Shown here in pieces: positions 3,629 through 35,803 of a stretch of 64,000 bases of DNA. A program made the translations under genes and the position numbers. The notes below the pieces were generated by a model, which saw nothing but the letters and a program-made list of their open reading frames with translations, was not told the origin of the DNA and did no database searches. Origin of the DNA: Chloroflexota bacterium (GTDB lineage: Bacteria; Chloroflexota; UBA11872); contig OZ253558.1 in assembly GCA_965262745.1 (NCBI GenBank), forward strand, positions 1,090,567 through 1,154,566, written 5' to 3'. Numbering within the stretch: the stretch's first letter is position 1; every line of letters begins with the position of its first letter.

Positions 3629-4666
3629 CTAAAGGGGTTTGCGAGCCAGGAAACAGTACAACGGCGTGAAGATCTCGGCCCTGCCGCCTGCGACGCAGGC
3701 ATTGGCGGTCCGATTCAGCAGCCCGACGACGTCCGCGGAGCCCTTCGGGAAAATCCCCAGCGCCTCGACCAGCCTAGATGTCCCGATGAACGCCTTGCGG
3801 CCTAGCGGAGTCCTGTACAGGGTGGTACCCAGCGCCTTACGCCGGGTCACCATGGGCTGATACCACGGCGTGGTCAGGCCATTCTCCGCGACGGCCCGGT
3901 CCCGACCCTCGATGATCTGAAATCCCGCCGTTTCAAGGGCTCGGTTCACCTCGCCCATAGTCGCGATATCCTTGAGCGCGATGCCGTGCATCAGATCCTG
4001 CTTGATGGCCCGGTGCCGGTTGTCGTCGGGATCGAACTTGTCCGTCATGCACATTTCCTGACCCCAGAAGAGGGCTCCGGGTTTCAGCACGCGGTAGATC
4101 TCGGCGAACGCGCCCGCCTTGTCCGGAGCATGGCACGTCGATTCGATCGCGTAGCCCCGGTCGAACGTGTCGTCCGCGATGGCGCCCATGTCCATGAAGT
4201 TGCATGCGAGGTAGTCGGCCATGTGGTCGAGTCCCGCCTCAGCGTTTAGCGATTTCGCGTTGTCCAACTGGATTTCATTGTTATTGACCCCGACGACCCT
4301 GACACCAGCCTCCCGGATGACCCGGCGCATCGGGCCGCCGATCCCGCAACCGACATCGATCACCGTCATGCCCTTGCGCAATTCCAGCTTGGCGATCATC
4401 AGTCGCTGGTGCCGGGTCTTGGAGTCCTCCAGGCTCTCCCGCGGCGACAGCGGCGCGAAGTGGAGGGATTCGCCCCAACCGAACACCATGAACTCGCCGC
4501 AAAGGTCGTAGTATTCCTTGACGGTTTGGGTGTGGTCGTAGGCCGTCGCGCCGGCATTCTCCGCGGTCGTTCTGTGCATCCATCCATCGAAGTGTTTCAC
4601 ACGACGGCGGGTGTCCATCCCACGGTACGCAGCCTTCAGCCCGTTGGATAGTTTGCGGAGTTGCAT
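3629..4666 (-). CDS. Sterol 24-C-methyltransferase (ERG6/SMT1-type SAM-dependent methyltransferase)
   Basis: Recalled from memory of yeast Erg6, blocks align along the whole length. Examples: YYDLCGEFMVFGWGESLHF vs ATDFYEYGWGSSFHF, IDVGCGIGGPMRRV vs LDVGCGVGGPAREI, VVGVNNNEIQLDNAK vs VIGLNNNDYQIAKAK, and YAIESTCHAPDKAGAFAEIYRVLKPG vs [26 protein letters not shown]. The C-terminal sterol-MT domain also matches (AGGRAEIFTPLYCFLARKP vs AGGKSKLFTPMMLFVARKP). Confidence 0.8.
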   Translation of the reverse strand: MQLRKLSNGLKAAYRGMDTRRRVKHFDGWMHRTTAENAGATAYDHTQTVKEYYDLCGEFMVFGWGESLHFAPLSPRESLEDSKTRHQRLMIAKLELRKGMTVIDVGCGIGGPMRRVIREAGVRVVGVNNNEIQLDNAKSLNAEAGLDHMADYLACNFMDMGAIADDTFDRGYAIESTCHAPDKAGAFAEIYRVLKPGALFWGQEMCMTDKFDPDDNRHRAIKQDLMHGIALKDIATMGEVNRALETAGFQIIEGRDRAVAENGLTTPWYQPMVTRRKALGTTLYRTPLGRKAFIGTSRLVEALGIFPKGSADVVGLLNRTANACVAGGRAEIFTPLYCFLARKPL

Positions 4667-7822: not shown

Positions 7823-9085
7823 TCAGAGGACCGTCTTGGGGCGCTCCTTGGTCGGATCGAAGAAGGGGACGCGTGCCACCTCGGCGTCGACGATGCCGTC
7901 CTTGGGGAGCAGCACGTTGACACGGGTGCCTCGCCGCCAGTGCGTCCGAGGCATCACCGCCAGGGCGATATTCGATCCGACGCTTGGGGACCAGAAGGCG
8001 CTGGTGACGTAGCCCACGTCATGGCCGGCGTCGAGGTCCTTGACCAGGTAGAAGTCCTCGTTGTACCAGGTGATCGGTTGACCGCCGACCCTCAAACCAA
8101 CCAGGCGCTGCTGCACTCCCTCGTCCTTGATCCTGGCCAGTGCGTCTCTACCTATAAAGTTGCTCTTGTTCAGATCCACCTGCCAGCCGAGCCGGACTTC
8201 ATAGGGATTGTTCTCGATGTCCAAGTCCTGGCCGTAGGACAGGATTCCGGCCTCCAGGCGCCGGATGTGACTGGGAGCGATCACGCGCAGGTTGAACTCC
8301 GCGCCCTGCTCCAGGATGTAAGGCCAGACATCGTCCGCGTGAAGCATGGCGTCGTGCAGGTATATCTCGAAGCCGACCTCAGCCGAGAAGCCTGTGCGCG
8401 AAATCGTTACCGCGTGGCCGTTCAGCGTCTCGTGAATCAGTCCGTAGTAGGGAATGTCTCTCACGTGCGAGCCGAACATCTTCTCCAGCAGCGGGGCCGA
8501 CTTGGGCCCCTGAATCTGGACCGGGGCCACGTCGATCTCGTTGATGTCGACGTTGTATCCGGCGCTGGCGTTGACCCCCTGCGCCCAGAGGAGCACGTCG
8601 GAATCCGAGATGCTGAACCAGAACTCGTCATCGGCGACCCGCAGCAGCACCGGGTCGTTGATGACGCCGCCGTGCTGGTTGCACAGGATCACGTAGCGCG
8701 CCTGCATCGGTGGCAATAGCGCGTGAACGTCACGCGTGATCAGCAGGTTGACGAAGTCGGCGGCGTCCGGGCCTTTGACCTGGATCTGACGCTCCACCGC
8801 AACGTCCCACATGCTCACGTGCTCAGTGAGGTAGCGGTACTCCTCGAGCAGCCCGCCATCCTCGGGTTTGATGTACGCGCGCGGGTGGTACAGGTGGTTG
8901 TAGGTCGTGTAGGCCCAACATCCGGCGGCCTTCGACAGGTGCCACCACGGAGACTTTCTGATGCGCGTCGATATGAGGATCCGTGCGTCGCTGTCCCCGC
9001 TCTGCCGCAGGTTGATCGGCACCCGACGCCGCTTGAGTCCGTCGATCACCAGCGTTTGCGTCACCTGAGGACCTCCAGTCGCCAT
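7823..9085 (-). CDS. Aminomethyltransferase-family protein (GcvT/DmdA-like folate-binding)
   Basis: The 420-aa ORF has GcvT-family architecture. It lies next to a dimethylglycine dehydrogenase-family gene. Confidence 0.65.
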   Translation of the reverse strand: MATGGPQVTQTLVIDGLKRRRVPINLRQSGDSDARILISTRIRKSPWWHLSKAAGCWAYTTYNHLYHPRAYIKPEDGGLLEEYRYLTEHVSMWDVAVERQIQVKGPDAADFVNLLITRDVHALLPPMQARYVILCNQHGGVINDPVLLRVADDEFWFSISDSDVLLWAQGVNASAGYNVDINEIDVAPVQIQGPKSAPLLEKMFGSHVRDIPYYGLIHETLNGHAVTISRTGFSAEVGFEIYLHDAMLHADDVWPYILEQGAEFNLRVIAPSHIRRLEAGILSYGQDLDIENNPYEVRLGWQVDLNKSNFIGRDALARIKDEGVQQRLVGLRVGGQPITWYNEDFYLVKDLDAGHDVGYVTSAFWSPSVGSNIALAVMPRTHWRRGTRVNVLLPKDGIVDAEVARVPFFDPTKERPKTVL

Positions 9086-9204
9086 CGGTCGTTGTACCGC
9101 TTCGGCCTGTCGCCAACCGAGGGCGTCGCGTAACTTCTTGTCATTCCAGCGAAAAGCCTACCCCGTACTCGATACCGGGCCGGAATCCAGGCCCCACCCA
9201 ACCT

Positions 9205-9341
9205 GGAACCGCGCAGGGTTCTCCCAGCACATTCATAGCCAGTCGGGGTTATGCGAACGTACCCAATCCGGAGGGAACCAGTGCAACTCACGCCTTCATC
9301 CGCCTGCCGTCCAGATCGTATAGCGGTTCATTCGCCACCGT
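9205..9341. repeat. Copy A of an approximately 137-bp imperfect direct repeat (about 85% identity to 11105..11240)
   Basis: Direct alignment of the two stretches matches. The last 60 bp (ccttcatccgcctgccgtcc.gatcgtatagcggttcattcgccaccgt) are near identical. Confidence 0.85.
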
Positions 9342-11012
9342 GAACGTATAGCTCGCCGCGCCGAGCGTGGGCGGCGGGCCGCAGCCCGGAGCGGTGGCGA
9401 CGTCGGGGAGCGCGGTGGCGCTGTGATGCAGGCGCAGCATCAGCTGGTCGTCGGCCTGCCAGGGCGCGGCGCAGGCCCGCCAGCGCCACGCCTGCCCGCC
9501 GGAGTCGGTGGCGGCCGTGGTGGCGTCGTCGAGGCGCAGCCGCAGGGTGACCGTGCCGTCCAGCGCGATGACGTCCAGGTAGTGGTTGGCCAGCGGCGCG
9601 GCCACGGAGAGCTCAAGCTGGAGCTGCTGGGCCTCCCAGATCAGCCGCTGGATGGTGGCGGCGGTGTCGCCGACGGTGAACGCCGCTGGCTGGAGCACGC
9701 CGCGGCTGCCGTCCGCACCCACGCCGGCCCCGATGGCCACCGGATCGAAGAACGCCTCATGCACCGTTCGCGCCGGCGCCGTGACCTGGATCGTGAAGGC
9801 AATGTAGGCGTCGTCCGGCATGAAGTTGCACGGAATATCTTTGTAGTGCTGCGTGTGGTAGTGCACGCGATAGGTGCCGGCGGGCAGCGGACGGGCGGTG
9901 GCCAGCGCGTGGTCGTAGCCAGTGCTGGACTGGTCGTCGTCGTCGATGATCCGGGCCTGGAAGCGCTCGTGGTCCGGGCCGCTGAGCCAATACTGGTTGT
10001 ACTGTGGGTCCGATCGTTCGATCGTCTGCGTGTAAACGTTGGTCACCGTCGCCGTCCCCGAGGCCAGCGGAATGTCGAAGGGGATTGGGGTCAGCGGATC
10101 GGCGCGATTGATCCGTTCCAACAGAATCCTGCCGCGGACACAGTCTTCGTAGCCAGGGACGCCTTCCCCAGCCCGCAGCTCGGCAGCCAGCGCCGCGATC
10201 TTGGCCCGCAGGTCCGTCATGGACACCACCGGCGGCGGCGGCGACTCCGCCCCGTCGGTGATGAACACCGTGCCGGCGCCGTCCGCCGCCCGCGTCTGGC
10301 CCGTCGCCCCGCCCGCGTCCCGCGCCGGCAGCCACGCCCGGCTCAGCGTGTCCACGCTGTAGTCCCACTGTTGCTCCCGGTAGAAGTTGGATCGCGTGAA
10401 TTGCAGCGCGGGCGCAGTCGCGCGCCCCGCCGCCCCGCCGCTCGCCGCGGCGGAGGTATAGGGCTCGAGCGGCGTTTGCAGGAAGAGCACCCCTTGCCGG
10501 TCGTCCCAGGCGGTGACGCGCTGCGCCACCGCATAGACCGCGTCCGCGCGCGCCTCGGCCTCGGTCAGGAAGGTATGGGTGCCGCGCACCACCACCACCA
10601 GCGCCGCCGGCCCCGTCCCCTTGAGGTATTCGTGCACCGTGAAGCGCAGCTCCTGCACCGGGCGATAGGTGGGCGCGACGCCGGGAGTGCTGGGCACCGT
10701 CTCAACTGCCGCCGCCGCCGCCTGCAGCGAGGCCCGCACGATCACCGGCGAGGTGAAGACCTGCTCCTCCAGCGACGGCGCGACCTGCCAGGTGATGTCC
10801 GGATAGTCCTGCACGATCGGGGTCGGCGTCGGCCGCAGGAGCGCCGGCGTGGGCGCGGGCATTGCCGGCGCGGGGTCGGGTGCCGCCATATCTGTGGCCG
10901 GGGCGGTCGCGGGAGCGCCCGCCGGTCCGCAGGCGGCGGCCAAGGCGAGCAGCAGACCGAGCGTCAGGCACCGCCAGGCGCGCCGTGGCAGCATGCGGGG
11001 CCAAGGCGGCAT
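9288..11012 (-). CDS. Secreted lipoprotein of unknown function with a Pro/Ala/Thr-rich linker
   Basis: There is a signal peptide and lipobox (MLPRRAWRCLTLGLLLALAAACG). The ORF is callable from 11132 but the likely start is near 11012. Its last 15 aa (ANEPLYDLDGRRMKA) are encoded by repeat copy A and mirror the C-terminus of the downstream DMGDH gene. Confidence 0.5.
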   Translation of the reverse strand: MPPWPRMLPRRAWRCLTLGLLLALAAACGPAGAPATAPATDMAAPDPAPAMPAPTPALLRPTPTPIVQDYPDITWQVAPSLEEQVFTSPVIVRASLQAAAAAVETVPSTPGVAPTYRPVQELRFTVHEYLKGTGPAALVVVVRGTHTFLTEAEARADAVYAVAQRVTAWDDRQGVLFLQTPLEPYTSAAASGGAAGRATAPALQFTRSNFYREQQWDYSVDTLSRAWLPARDAGGATGQTRAADGAGTVFITDGAESPPPPVVSMTDLRAKIAALAAELRAGEGVPGYEDCVRGRILLERINRADPLTPIPFDIPLASGTATVTNVYTQTIERSDPQYNQYWLSGPDHERFQARIIDDDDQSSTGYDHALATARPLPAGTYRVHYHTQHYKDIPCNFMPDDAYIAFTIQVTAPARTVHEAFFDPVAIGAGVGADGSRGVLQPAAFTVGDTAATIQRLIWEAQQLQLELSVAAPLANHYLDVIALDGTVTLRLRLDDATTAATDSGGQAWRWRACAAPWQADDQLMLRLHHSATALPDVATAPGCGPPPTLGAASYTFTVANEPLYDLDGRRMKA

Positions 11013-11104
11013 CGTGGTCCTCCTAAGGCGTGGGCGTGGGGTGGTGCGCCTGGGTCGCCCGCGCGCCTTACGTGTCATTGTCGGAAAGACCGCAGCGGAT
11101 CTCC

Positions 11105-11240
11105 GGAACCGCGAAGGCTTCTCGCAGCACATTCATCGCCTGTGAGGGCTATGCAAACGTCCCCAATTCGGAGGGACCCCTGCGGCTCACACCTTCATCC
11201 GCCTGCCGTCCGGATCGTATAGCGGTTCATTCGCCACCGT
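11105..11240. repeat. Copy B of the approximately 137-bp direct repeat, covering the DMGDH 3' end and downstream spacer
   Basis: See copy A. Confidence 0.85.
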
Positions 11241-13655
11241 CGCTTGCAGGCGCTCGCCAAAGTAAAGGACGTCGACGGTTGTTCCTGCCGCGGCATGGTC
11301 GACGGGCAGATAGCCATACACGATGCCGCGGCTGATGGAGTGGCCGTAGTTGGCGCTGGTCGCGTAGCCCAGCACGCGGTCGCCGTCCAGGATGGGCTCC
11401 TTGCCCACGACCACGCAGCTGGAGTCGTCGAGCGTCATGCAGCACAGACGGCGCGTCAGTCCCTGCGCCCGCAATTTGCCGAGCGCCTCCCTGCCGACAA
11501 ACTCGCCTTTTCTCATCCGCACCGCGAATCCCAGGCCCGCCTCGAATGGGTTGTACTCGGTGTGGATGTCGTTTCCCCAGAGCCGGTAGCCCTTTTCCAA
11601 CCGCAGCGAGTCGAACGCGCCGCCGCCCGCGGCGATCAGGCCGAGCGGCTGGCCCGCCTCCCAGAGTGCGTCCCACAGCCGCAACCCCTGCTCGGCGGGA
11701 GCGTAGATCTCCCACCCAAGCTCGCCCACATATGAGATGCGCAGCGCCAGCGCGGGAACCCCGCCAACGGTGATCGCCTTCGCGGTCATGTAAGGGAATG
11801 CGGCGTCGCTCACGTCGTCCTCGCAGACGCGGCTGAGCACTTCTCGTGCCTTCGGTCCCCACAGACCGAGGCAGCATTGCCCCGACGAGACATCGGCCAC
11901 GCTCACCGAGCGGTCATCCGGCAGATGCGACCGGATCCAGTCCAGATCGTGCGGTCCCGTAGCTCCGGAGGTGACCACCAGGAAGCGCTCGCTGCCGAGC
12001 CGCGTAACCGTCAGGTCGCACTTGATTCCCCCGCTCGGCGTGAGCATCGGCGTGTAGGTGATCGACCCGACGGGCCTGTCCATCTGGTTGGACGCGAGTC
12101 GTTGCAGTGCCTCAAGCGCGCCGCGCCCGGTCACCTCGAACTTTGCGAATGGGCTGAGGTCGAACAGGGCCGCGCGCTCACGGGTGGCCACGTGCTCGGC
12201 CGCCACCGTCGGCGACCATTCACGCGCCGCCCAGCCGGCACGCGATTCGCCGGTGACGGGGAGTGAGTCGAGCAGGTCCCGGTTGGCGTCGTGCCACTGC
12301 GGCCGTTCCCAACCAGCGTTCTCGAAGAACACGGCGCCGAGTTCCCTTTGCCGCGCAAAGAAGGGCGTCAGCCGGATGTTCCGGGGATTGGTCGCCTGCT
12401 GCCGCGGGTGGATGATGTCGTACACCTCGCGGTATTGCTGCGCCGCCCGCGCCCGGACATAGGGACGGCTGAGCGCGTGGGGGTGGAAGCGCCTGATGTC
12501 GCACTCTCGAAGGTCGGTGGTCGGCTCGCCGTTCACGATCCACTCGGCGACCGCCTTGCCGACGCCTCCGGCGTGCGTGATCCACACGGCCTGCGCCGAC
12601 CAGAATCCGCGCACCTCGGGCGACTCGCCAAGCACAGGAAACCCGTCGGTGGTGAACGAGAACAGGCCGTTGAACTTCCGCGTCAAGCCCGCGCCCACGA
12701 GGCTGGGAAGCACCTCCCGCGCCGCCGCCATCCCACTCTCGAAGTGTTCCGGCGTGAACGACATCTCGGCCGGGGCGATGGGCGCCTCCCCGTGGTCGAG
12801 GATGTCATCCGCTTCCACAACCAGGGGTTCGTGGCGGTATGAGCCAATGCCGACGGCCTCACCCACCTGGCGGAAATACATGGACTTGTCCTGGTGGCGC
12901 ACGATCGGCAGGGAGATGTCCTCGGTGCTGCCGGTCAGGTCAGGCAGCGGCGTGGTAACCGCGTAGATGTGCTGCAGTGGCGACAGCGGTATGGGCACCC
13001 CGGCCTCGGCGCCGAGCCTCGGTGCCCAGATGCCGACGGCAGAGACCACCAGGTCTGTCGTGATGTCGCCCTGGGTGGTGTGCACCGCGGCAATGCGGCC
13101 GTCGGCGATTCCGAAGCCGGTGACCTTGACGTTGCCATGGAACGCCGCGCCGTTTCGCTCGGCCTCGCGCGCCATCGCCTCGGCCGGCCTGGTCGCGTTC
13201 GTCTGGATGTCTGAAGGGACATAGATCGCGCCCAGCACGCGCTCGGAAAGCAGCGGGAAGAGACTGCGCGCCTCGGCGGCGCTGAGCAGGTGGGCCTCTA
13301 CGCCCCAGCTCAGGCCGTAGCCGACCTTTCGTTTCAGGTCGGCGAGCCGCTCAGGAGTCCAAGCCACCTCCAGACTGCCGACGGTTTTGGCGCACGGAAC
13401 GCCGTCGAGCTCCAATTGCGACCACAGATCAACGGTGGTGCGCGCGAAGCTCGTCATGGTCTTGGAAGGGTTGACCTGGAAGACCAGTCCCGGCGCGTGA
13501 GACGTGGAACCGCCGGTTTCGAAGAGTGGGCCCTGATCGACGACAACGATGTCCCGCCACCCGAGCGTTGTCAGGTGGTAGGCCACGCTGCAACCGGCGA
13601 TCCCGGCGCCAACGACGACTGCTCTAGCGTGTCTCGGCATCATGCCGTCAGGCAC
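11187..13655 (-). CDS. Dimethylglycine/sarcosine dehydrogenase-family protein (FAD oxidoreductase N-domain plus GcvT-like C-domain)
   Basis: The 822-aa ORF has a Rossmann GxGxxG N-terminus (AVVVGAGIAGCSVAYHL) and a C-terminal aminomethyltransferase-like folate-binding domain. Confidence 0.8.
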   Translation of the reverse strand: MPDGMMPRHARAVVVGAGIAGCSVAYHLTTLGWRDIVVVDQGPLFETGGSTSHAPGLVFQVNPSKTMTSFARTTVDLWSQLELDGVPCAKTVGSLEVAWTPERLADLKRKVGYGLSWGVEAHLLSAAEARSLFPLLSERVLGAIYVPSDIQTNATRPAEAMAREAERNGAAFHGNVKVTGFGIADGRIAAVHTTQGDITTDLVVSAVGIWAPRLGAEAGVPIPLSPLQHIYAVTTPLPDLTGSTEDISLPIVRHQDKSMYFRQVGEAVGIGSYRHEPLVVEADDILDHGEAPIAPAEMSFTPEHFESGMAAAREVLPSLVGAGLTRKFNGLFSFTTDGFPVLGESPEVRGFWSAQAVWITHAGGVGKAVAEWIVNGEPTTDLRECDIRRFHPHALSRPYVRARAAQQYREVYDIIHPRQQATNPRNIRLTPFFARQRELGAVFFENAGWERPQWHDANRDLLDSLPVTGESRAGWAAREWSPTVAAEHVATRERAALFDLSPFAKFEVTGRGALEALQRLASNQMDRPVGSITYTPMLTPSGGIKCDLTVTRLGSERFLVVTSGATGPHDLDWIRSHLPDDRSVSVADVSSGQCCLGLWGPKAREVLSRVCEDDVSDAAFPYMTAKAITVGGVPALALRISYVGELGWEIYAPAEQGLRLWDALWEAGQPLGLIAAGGGAFDSLRLEKGYRLWGNDIHTEYNPFEAGLGFAVRMRKGEFVGREALGKLRAQGLTRRLCCMTLDDSSCVVVGKEPILDGDRVLGYATSANYGHSISRGIVYGYLPVDHAAAGTTVDVLYFGERLQATVANEPLYDPDGRRMKV

Positions 13656-15232: not shown

Positions 15233-16210
15233 TTAGTCCTCCGACAGCCCGGCGAACCTTGCCGCGTTCGCGCCGAGGATCAGCCGCTTTTCCTCGTCCG
15301 AGAGGAAGTTCGCATGCGTCGTGACCATCGTGAGGTTCTGCTTGTACGTGCAGCGGCCCTCGGTCCATGGCCAGTCCGTGCCCCACATCACACGCTCCGC
15401 GCCGGCGCCCTTGACCAGCCCCTCCAGTAGCGCGAGTCCGTTGGCGTACGGGTACTCCCATTCCGGGCCTTTCAGCCGGCCGTTCGTCCACGCGATCTCA
15501 TCCCCAAAGAAGATCGTGATGGCGGCGATGTCGGTGTAGAGGTTCTCGTGCCTGTTGAGCAGCCCCACGAAGGGCTCCAACGACGGAAACGGCGGGCGGC
15601 AGTTCGCCAGCCATTGGTCGCCCCAGGTGAAGCACCCCCAATGGGTCAGCAGGAACCGCACCGACGGGAAGTCGCGCGCGACCGGTTCGAATAGGTTGAG
15701 GAACTCCTGATAGTCCGAAACGCAGGCACGCAAGCGAGGATCGTTCCAGCGTTCCCAGGCCATGACGATCGGCACGTCGCGCTCCGCACACAGCTCGTAG
15801 ACCTTGCGCAGGCCGGGGTCGGACGGCCAGTGGCCGGTATAGGCCGGGAACAGCTTGAGCCCCACCGCCCCCGCGTCGAGATCCGCCCGGATCCGGTCGA
15901 GGTAGCCCGGTCGATCGGGGTTGATGTGATCGGTGAACCAGATGAAGCGATCGTGGTCGGCCGCCTTCAGCGCGTCGAGGAAATACTCCTTGGTGATCCG
16001 GTTGATGGCCGGATCGTCCCAGGTGTCGCCGAGGTCCGGCCAGATGTCCTCGGCCGTGTAGCTGATCAGAAAGCACTTGTCCACGCCGGCATAGTTCATC
16101 TCGTCGAGCAGCAGCTCGGCCGACATCGGGTGCCAGGTGTAGTGCATCCGGATACTGCGCTCAACGCCGTGCGCCTTCTCCAAGATGTGGACTTGGGTGT
16201 CGATGATCAT
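15233..16210 (-). CDS. Amidohydrolase-2 family metal-dependent hydrolase (TIM barrel)
   Basis: The protein starts with the metal-ligand motif IDTQVHI and has an HxH-like pattern. Its 325-aa length fits the PF04909-like family. Confidence 0.65.
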   Translation of the reverse strand: MIIDTQVHILEKAHGVERSIRMHYTWHPMSAELLLDEMNYAGVDKCFLISYTAEDIWPDLGDTWDDPAINRITKEYFLDALKAADHDRFIWFTDHINPDRPGYLDRIRADLDAGAVGLKLFPAYTGHWPSDPGLRKVYELCAERDVPIVMAWERWNDPRLRACVSDYQEFLNLFEPVARDFPSVRFLLTHWGCFTWGDQWLANCRPPFPSLEPFVGLLNRHENLYTDIAAITIFFGDEIAWTNGRLKGPEWEYPYANGLALLEGLVKGAGAERVMWGTDWPWTEGRCTYKQNLTMVTTHANFLSDEEKRLILGANAARFAGLSED

Positions 16211-35719: not shown

Positions 35720-35803
35720 TGCCGAGGGCGGGACTCGAACCCGCACAGCCCGGAGGCCACTAGCCCCTCAAGCTAGCGCGTCTACCAATTCCGCCACCTC
35801 GGC
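35720..35803 (-). tRNA. tRNA-Leu (anticodon GAG), type II with a long variable arm
   Basis: The reverse complement gccgaggtggcggaattggtagacgcgctagcttgaggggctagtggcctccgggctgtgcgggttcgagtcccgccctcggca folds as a cloverleaf by hand. It has a 7-bp acceptor stem, a D-arm, an anticodon loop ttGAGgg, a 15-nt variable arm and a T-arm gcggg/ttcgagt/cccgc. Confidence 0.8.

Follow-up and report, generated by a model that had tools for sequence, protein, structure and literature searches.

A 64,000-nucleotide (nt) stretch of a Chloroflexota genome (contig OZ253558.1, positions 1,090,567 to 1,154,566; hereafter the window) carries a putative lipoprotein gene lodged between a DMGDH-like gene and a GcvT-like aminomethyltransferase gene. 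The lipoprotein gene is flanked by an imperfect 137-bp direct repeat, and its product ends in a peptide nearly the same as the C-terminus of the DMGDH-like protein. Here, we consider how this arrangement may have arisen, drawing on the window itself and on the orthologous loci of related genomes. The features of the locus, in their order along the minus strand, are:

13655..11187, minus strand: DMGDH-like gene, 822 aa, intact, the source of the duplicated tail (open reading frame; Pfam DAO + FAO_M + GCV_T + GCV_T_C; ends ...TVANEPLYDPDGRRMKV).
11232..11240, minus strand: ACGGTGGCG, the T-V-A codons in DMGDH, a microhomology with the lipoprotein gene family (codon-level comparison).
11105..11240, minus strand: repeat copy B, 136 nt, comprising the DMGDH tail and stop codon (11187-11240), native spacer (11170-11186) and segment R2 (11105-11169).
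11013..11104, minus strand: cassette leader, 92 nt, in which AGGAGG lies 6 nt ahead of the ATG; without homology to segment X (below) or to the examined upstream regions of paralogues.
11012..9288, minus strand: lipoprotein open reading frame, 574 aa, with AGGAGG 6 nt before the ATG; ends ...TVANEPLYDLDGRRMKA.
9342..11012, minus strand: lipoprotein body (residues 1-557), carrying a putative signal peptide and the conserved Cys28; homologous to the N-terminal module shared by a large, multi-copy family of Chloroflexota, and stops at F-T-V-A, where paralogues enter cadherin domains.
9205..9341, minus strand: repeat copy A, 137 nt, comprising the duplicated tail and stop codon (9288-9341, now the lipoprotein C-terminus TVANEPLYDLDGRRMKA), duplicated spacer (9270-9287) and R2 (9205-9269).
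9120..9269, minus strand: intact element E, 150 nt, resembling a repetitive extragenic palindrome (REP) and made up of R2 (65 nt) and segment X (85 nt); missing from empty sites, with relatives in loci L014 and L034.
9065..9119, minus strand: remnant of the native DMGDH-GcvT spacer, including the ribosome-binding site of GcvT; aligns collinearly with the empty sites in L007 and L008, 93.9% identity to L007.
7823..9064 (alternative start 9085), minus strand: GcvT-like aminomethyltransferase gene (GCV_T + GCV_T_C), the ancestral immediate downstream neighbour of DMGDH (open reading frame, Pfam, orthologous loci).

An earlier, sequence-only reading of this locus had reported a direct repeat at 9205-9341 and 11105-11240 of about 85% identity, and self-comparison by repeat search, MAFFT and blastn recovers it, correct in every particular. 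The two copies are identical at 119 of 137 positions with a single 1-nt indel (repeat search and MAFFT); blastn returns 86.9% identity over 137 columns (E ~1e-42). The window has exactly two occurrences of the 28-mer ACGGTGGCGAATGAACCGCTATACGATC, where shuffles predict 0.00, and the 64 kb hold no further copy of the repeat. Each copy consists, in order, of the last 17 DMGDH codons with their stop, 17-18 nt of native spacer, and the first 65 nt of the REP-like element. Alignment of both copies with the empty sites of relatives assigns 72 nt to the native share (a 54-nt DMGDH tail and 17-18 nt of spacer), the other 65 nt being R2. Counted from the alignment, the coding tail and stop codon are identical at 52 of 54 positions, whereas the 83 non-coding columns hold 15 mismatches and one 1-nt indel (~81% identical; Fisher p = 0.009). 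Six independent metagenome contigs, drawn from several samples, share this architecture, which makes an assembly artefact unlikely.

The reported near-identity of the two protein endings also holds, with DMGDH closing in ...TVANEPLYDPDGRRMKV and the lipoprotein in ...TVANEPLYDLDGRRMKA. The 822-residue protein is assigned by its domain architecture to the dimethylglycine/sarcosine dehydrogenase family, with Pfam matches to DAO (2.7e-55), FAO_M (3.9e-21), GCV_T (4.9e-84) and GCV_T_C (4.5e-19). The last of these spans residues 735-814 of 822, so that the tail is the end of the GCV_T_C domain. Further, the motif TVxx(E/D)(P/A)(L/I/V)(Y/F/V)DP... closes 76 of 80 DMGDH orthologues. Among the 120 best homologues of the lipoprotein, the tail is present in seven only (P0001-P0006 and P0009), and the six of these that were checked all lie at the DMGDH locus. 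The tail therefore originates in DMGDH and is foreign to the lipoprotein. The sequence-only reading had asked whether the lipoprotein family normally ends differently, and it does.

The lipoprotein belongs to a large family, with 455 matches among the candidates scored. Its N-terminus, MPPWPRMLPRRAWRCLTLGLLLALAAAC, has a charged N-region and a hydrophobic core, and Cys28 is at least 90% conserved among 71 homologues, marking a putative lipobox by inspection. Searches for a family assignment gave no sequence match in Pfam, NCBIfam or the PDB. An AlphaFold model built from the 71 homologues has a mean predicted local distance difference test score (pLDDT) of 80.8 and is confident at residues 60-535; Foldseek with this model found weak Ig-like or cadherin-like matches only (template-modelling score ≤0.14). 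Close paralogues read ...ASYAFTVAEDAAVGAAVG... or ...PGCGPAPTYGAASYAFTVAEDAAVGAAVGTVTATAAG... and then continue for 300-450 more residues that match Pfam cadherin. In the window, the cadherin-type C-terminal region is gone. The chimeric peptide ...FTVANEPLYDLDGR closes the protein instead, its final 14 residues being derived from DMGDH and read through to the duplicated DMGDH stop. Residues 548-574, the borrowed tail included, fall below a pLDDT of 50 and are modelled as disordered; most likely, the tail has no function as a module and is a passenger, its contribution being the stop codon. The chimeric lipoprotein is nevertheless a live gene, since the ratio of non-synonymous to synonymous substitution (dN/dS) between strains is 0.33-0.54, compared with 0.17-0.24 for DMGDH.

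Family sequence able to act as a donor exists elsewhere in the same genome: the full-length paralogues P0012 and P0020 are reported on a contig of 3,277,764 bp, a length equal to that of the contig of P0001. Full-length family members share a recurrent home locus behind a He_PIG/FN3 protein gene, with a 10-nt gap (L087:6032-11003, L089:3326-7592 and L090:1642-4941). In L087 and L089, this home locus lies near GFO_IDH_MocA, PhyH and gamma-glutamyltranspeptidase genes, and L089 has an rve-family transposase gene between two lipoprotein-family members.

The junction between the lipoprotein body and the DMGDH tail can be placed at codon level. Lipoprotein DNA is 87-88% identical to its paralogues in the 120 nt before the T-V-A codons and ~34% identical after them, and homology to DMGDH begins exactly at these codons. 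The three readings across the junction are:

Paralogues: TTC ACC GTG GCC GAA GAC
DMGDH: GCG ACG GTG GCG AAT GAA
Chimera: TTC ACG GTG GCG AAT GAA

These readings place an in-frame join within up to 9 nt of shared sequence. A junction in frame and inside a shared T-V-A triplet bears the classic signature of microhomology-mediated illegitimate joining. Amplification junctions in E. coli that lie in 4-15 bp of G-rich homology have been attributed to template switching (PMC1428787).

Orthologous loci supply the empty, filled and amplified forms of the site. A scan with one genome per species returned 80 loci, all in metagenome-assembled genomes (MAGs), from Chloroflexota/Dehalococcoidia, Latescibacterota, Gemmatimonadota and Entotheonella; the isolate labels of several agree with those of a series of sponge MAGs (PMC8163846). 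At 51 of these loci, no more than 210 nt separate DMGDH from a downstream GcvT-like gene, and at 27 no more than 60 nt. The nearest relatives, L007 (DMGDH 91% and GcvT 95% identical) and L008, have a 52-nt spacer. These empty junctions bear out the earlier proposal that the lipoprotein gene was inserted between DMGDH and GcvT and that the target was duplicated in the process. Amendments are needed. The cargo is a 3′-truncated paralogue from a cadherin-bearing family rather than a complete gene, and is joined at a 9-nt microhomology. Equally, the duplicated target is native DMGDH tail and spacer for 72 nt only, the other 65 nt coming from a REP-like element that entered the spacer earlier.

Six metagenome contigs, with DMGDH 94-100% identical to that of the window, have the lipoprotein gene at the same position. 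One cassette with two repeats is found in the window, L001, L002, L004 and L006, while L003 and L005 have two tandem cassettes of ~1.9 kb and three repeats. This pattern of n cassettes with n + 1 repeats, polymorphic in copy number, is that of tandem amplification by unequal crossing-over. Across strains, conservation is 96-100% for the first repeat copy and likewise for the last, yet the two are only ~86% identical to one another, and the duplication therefore predates the radiation of the strains. The duplicated cassettes are themselves already 5-12% diverged; consequently, the amplification is old and stable rather than transient. No integrase or transposase was found among the genes called within ~6 kb.

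The distal end of the repeat lies within element E. R2 is present at both 9205-9269 and 11105-11169, X (9120-9204) follows the last repeat copy only, and neither occurs in empty sites. Relatives of E lie directly 3′ of an unrelated 336-aa open reading frame in L014 (16652-16745) and in L034 (15303-15420). Aligned across the boundary between R2 and X, the L014 relative scores 52, compared with 16.5 ± 2.4 in shuffles. As R2 and X are contiguous in this independent copy, the distal boundary of the repeat is a breakpoint inside a pre-existing E. A hairpin core, GGATTCCGGC...GCCGGAATGAC, recurs in L012 (15196-15275), L074 (three copies; 4418-4467, 15408-15457) and L081 (12889-12938). The element sits just 3′ of stop codons, in unrelated places in several Chloroflexota/Dehalococcoidia MAGs, and sometimes carries a nested second hairpin. 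By these features, E is a REP-like dispersed intergenic repeat; the window holds just one copy. Two other origins for the non-coding segments were tried and rejected. The resemblance expected if R2 were a diverged copy of the native spacer is not significant (55 of 1000 shuffles score as well), and the leader is not homologous to X, as duplication of the whole of E would have it (local score 14; 530 of 1000 shuffles do as well).

Taken together, we propose, with a probability of roughly 0.7, that the repeat is the scar of an old microhomology-mediated illegitimate recombination or template-switching event in a sponge-associated Chloroflexota lineage. Comparison with relatives shows that the ancestral order was DMGDH, a spacer of ~52 nt, and GcvT. 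It also shows that the 150-nt element E entered the spacer 18 nt past the DMGDH stop. Next, the 92-nt leader and the first 557 codons of a surface-lipoprotein paralogue would have been copied into the locus, an event whose anatomy is seen and whose mechanism we infer. One junction lies within E, the other in frame at ACGGTGGCG, which the DMGDH tail and the lipoprotein gene have in common. On this view, synthesis or repair would have restarted 137 nt upstream of its point of departure, and 65 nt of E, 18 nt of spacer and the tail of DMGDH would thereby have been doubled. Most economically, this would take two template switches in replication or break repair, resembling microhomology-mediated break-induced replication (MMBIR) or fork stalling and template switching (FoSTeS); one end might have used homology-facilitated illegitimate recombination (HFIR). 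The outcome is a truncated lipoprotein gene beside an intact DMGDH gene. Finally, comparison among strains shows that the repeats became substrates for unequal homologous recombination, giving rise to two-cassette arrays, with internal exchange between cassettes and full-length paralogues.

The age of the repeat can be set against that of the flanking genes. Non-coding divergence between the repeat copies is ~0.2 per site. Synonymous divergence (dS) of DMGDH is 0.08-0.13 between strains, and that to the empty-site L007 is 0.255 for DMGDH and 0.265 for GcvT. An incoming copy that had already diverged is not required, because the observed divergence fits ageing in situ since the split from the empty-site species.

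Several points weigh against the template-switching history. The coding part of the repeat is far more alike than the non-coding part, as given above, and this could reflect later gene conversion or an incoming copy that had already diverged. The contrast is also compatible with selection on DMGDH acting together with the small number of sites (17 codons). Present-day paralogues match just 7-8 of the 9 junction bases. No donor of the leader was found in the upstream regions of paralogues or in 90 loci, and any microhomology at the distal junction is unreadable. An intermediate with E but without a cassette was not found, the R2 pattern giving 0 matches in JGI metagenome contigs. Finally, one-step and multi-step histories yield an identical end product.

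The alternative that fares best is integration of the Campbell type, in which a circle carrying the leader, the truncated lipoprotein gene and a diverged 137-bp copy recombined once with the DMGDH tail. Such a circle might be a unit looped out of the array of a related strain. The direct repeats flank exactly one unit, tandem arrays exist, and unit circles would be excisable through the repeats. The repeat copies are also compatible with an incoming diverged copy, their non-coding halves being ~19% diverged and their coding parts 96% identical. Nonetheless, a circle merely moves the problem elsewhere, as illegitimate joining at this microhomology must already have produced the fusion. In a search that was not exhaustive, the 120 best homologues included no further locus or element carrying the fusion. 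Integrase, plasmid and phage signals are likewise absent, and searches for a plasmid or phage homologue of the lipoprotein gave no match. The sequence-only reading had suggested, as an example, a single-crossover circle with a diverged copy of the target. With no second fusion of tail and lipoprotein found, and with copy divergence that fits ageing in situ, that circle is neither needed nor shown, and we consider it unlikely.

We regard as very unlikely a history in several steps, whereby a full-length gene entered E, unequal exchange at ACGGTGGCG between DMGDH and the lipoprotein gene created a tandem duplication, and the full-length distal copy was later deleted. It would use the same microhomology, and the locus demonstrably duplicates, deletes and gene-converts. 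Against this, it calls for at least three events, including a deletion without homology at its ends. In addition, all cassettes in every strain seen are truncated and carry the tail, the last one included, and no full-length, cadherin-bearing copy is present at the locus.

Less probable still is that the duplicated stretch was kept as a regulatory or RNA element (a terminator, processing site or coupling signal) of which each gene of the operon needs a copy, the protein tail being incidental. Every cassette, as well as GcvT, is indeed preceded by one copy of the repeat, and RNAalifold predicts a 7-bp closing stem (GAGCCGC/GCGGTTC) with two compensatory pairs. The covariation term is, however, just -0.44 kcal/mol. 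Folding of the single sequences is no better than that of shuffles (z = -0.55 and +0.96), the repeat has no Rfam family match, and no promoter or terminator consensus was found in 8900-11400. The non-coding part is moreover the least conserved part of the repeat, and empty-site relatives manage without the 65-nt R2. An RNA-level function of the repeat thus has no support. For the window as a whole, the only Rfam match at the gathering threshold in the 64 kb is one tRNA gene (35720-35803, minus strand).

That the lipoprotein family gained its C-terminal motif by convergence or has it natively, or that the whole structure is an assembly chimera, is hardly credible: nothing beyond the initial resemblance speaks for it, DNA-level similarity runs 83 nt past the stop codon, the tail is limited to proteins of the DMGDH locus, and the architecture is present in six independent assemblies, two of them with two cassettes.

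The cassettes are mosaic, with a hypervariable centre that is ~60% identical between variants. Cassette 2 of L003 (7913-9643) and L005 (6001-7731) is 97-100% identical over ~600 nt to the full-length P0013 (L089:5001-7592), with flanks at 75-86%. This near-identity indicates recent gene conversion or recombination within a multi-copy family, such that the truncated copy exchanges sequence with long genes that look expressed. Such exchange fits what is known of sponge symbionts, in which cadherin and FN3 attachment proteins are enriched and laterally transferred (PMC8163846). There are also hints of exchange between repeat copies: a CCA codon is common to both copies in L002 and L006, and CTG is common to copy A of the window and the middle copy of L003 and L005. 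Some cassettes and one DMGDH copy in low-coverage (2x-6x) long-read contigs are split by frameshifts (L005:4087-5825, P0010, P0011 and L006:3361-5830), reflecting either sequencing errors or decay.

We speculate that the DMGDH-GcvT junction might be a dedicated, homology-bounded cassette site for variable surface lipoproteins of sponge symbionts, with the repeats serving as portable recombination handles, although we hold this to be distinctly doubtful. If true, truncated cassettes would be amplified, lost, excised as circles and re-integrated, and would act as gene conversion partners of full-length, cadherin-bearing paralogues. This would represent a surface-variation system new to Chloroflexota and to sponge symbionts.

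The mechanism proposed here is a familiar one and overturns nothing in current understanding; what is unusual is how well this case is documented. The locus offers a well-resolved natural case of an operon gaining a foreign gene without mobile-element machinery, with empty, filled and amplified sites all at hand. One breakpoint is readable to the base, and the by-product is a chimeric protein whose C-terminus and stop codon are borrowed. The lipoprotein family itself is large and uncharacterised, is found in sponge-associated Chloroflexota, often has cadherin, FN3 or leucine-rich repeat (LRR) extensions, and shows mosaic exchange. It therefore bears on how symbionts might present variable adhesins to their host.

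Several observations concern the surroundings of the insertion. For the GcvT-like gene, a GTG start at 9064 is likelier than the ATG at 9085, having GGAGG 6 nt upstream and giving 413 aa as in relatives; in L001, the GcvT-like gene is itself apparently broken. Synteny ends directly after GcvT, the window and L002 continuing into MMPL-type genes and L003-L006 into a DnaE2-like Pol III alpha gene. The latter is preceded by NTP_transf_2 (with HEPN in L004) except in L006, and an IMS/ImuB-like gene follows where the locus reaches that far (L005 and L006).

In other lineages, the DMGDH-GcvT junction holds 1-2.5 kb of extra operon genes (L018, L029, L032, L033, L035, L040, L043-L045, L047-L049, L052, L062, L064, L067, L069 and L084). 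These are MTHFR (PF02219, E = 4.8e-35) and a ~430-aa protein with weak 4Fe-4S dicluster matches. None of the 1-2.8 kb insertions at this junction in other lineages has a tail duplication beside it. Further, the DMGDH-GcvT pair shares 78-85% protein identity between Chloroflexota and the Latescibacterota, Gemmatimonadota and Entotheonella MAGs (L019-L023, L026-L028, L031, L036, L039, L042, L054, L071, L079 and L080), while some Dehalococcoidia reach just 71-74%. This suggests that the operon may have moved between phyla among co-resident symbionts.

Among known systems, insertion by transposons or insertion sequences is recognised by a 2-14 bp target-site duplication, terminal inverted repeats and a transposase gene. 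Here, the duplication is 137 bp, the ends of the insert lack inverted repeats and the genes called within ~6 kb include no transposase, so that the locus does not have the marks of such an insertion. As in integron cassettes, a gene-sized unit lies between repeats of ~60-140 bp and forms short arrays. Unlike attC cassettes, the locus has no integrase, and its repeats are direct copies of host coding tail and spacer, not imperfect palindromes; they form no significant hairpin and fold no better than shuffles. The locus thus does not match an integron cassette array.

The pilS/pilE loci of Neisseria and vls of Borrelia are silent-cassette loci for antigenic variation. The resemblance lies in a multi-copy surface-protein family with a hypervariable centre, and in a truncated copy that shares a ~600-nt tract, at 97-100%, with a full-length paralogue. 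Unlike those silent cassettes, the truncated copy looks expressed, being equipped with a stop codon, signal peptide and ribosome-binding site of its own, and neither a dedicated expression site nor unidirectional conversion has been shown. With Campbell integration, the locus has in common an insert flanked by direct repeats of a homologous segment and reversible through them. It differs in that no independent circle or vector functions were found, and in that the repeat holds an in-frame fusion that requires a prior illegitimate event. The arrays of one or two cassettes by strain, with n + 1 repeats, resemble amplification by unequal crossing-over; they differ from transient tandem amplification in having low copy numbers only and duplicates that are 5-12% diverged.

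Closer parallels are found in illegitimate recombination. In natural transformation, HFIR joins DNA on one side at 3-10 bp of microhomology (de Vries & Wackernagel 2002, summarised in PMC6382021). It also depends on homology to anchor the opposite side, and recipient DNA is as a rule replaced. The present case is like HFIR in that foreign or ectopic DNA is joined at microhomology on one side; it is unlike it in that 137 bp are duplicated and no anchor is identified. Insertional duplications of the MMBIR/FoSTeS type share the absence of recombinase and mobile-element genes, a copied segment inserted with duplication of its flank, and subsequent expansion by homologous recombination. Long-distance template-switch amplification in E. 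coli (PMC1428787) offers a similar novel junction within short, G-rich, imperfect homology, of 9 nt here compared with 4-15 bp there. In E. coli, the amplified DNA is adjacent sequence, whereas the insert here comes from a paralogous gene elsewhere, and one of its two junctions is readable. Finally, unlike amplification in the laboratory, the event described here is ancient and has become fixed in its lineage.

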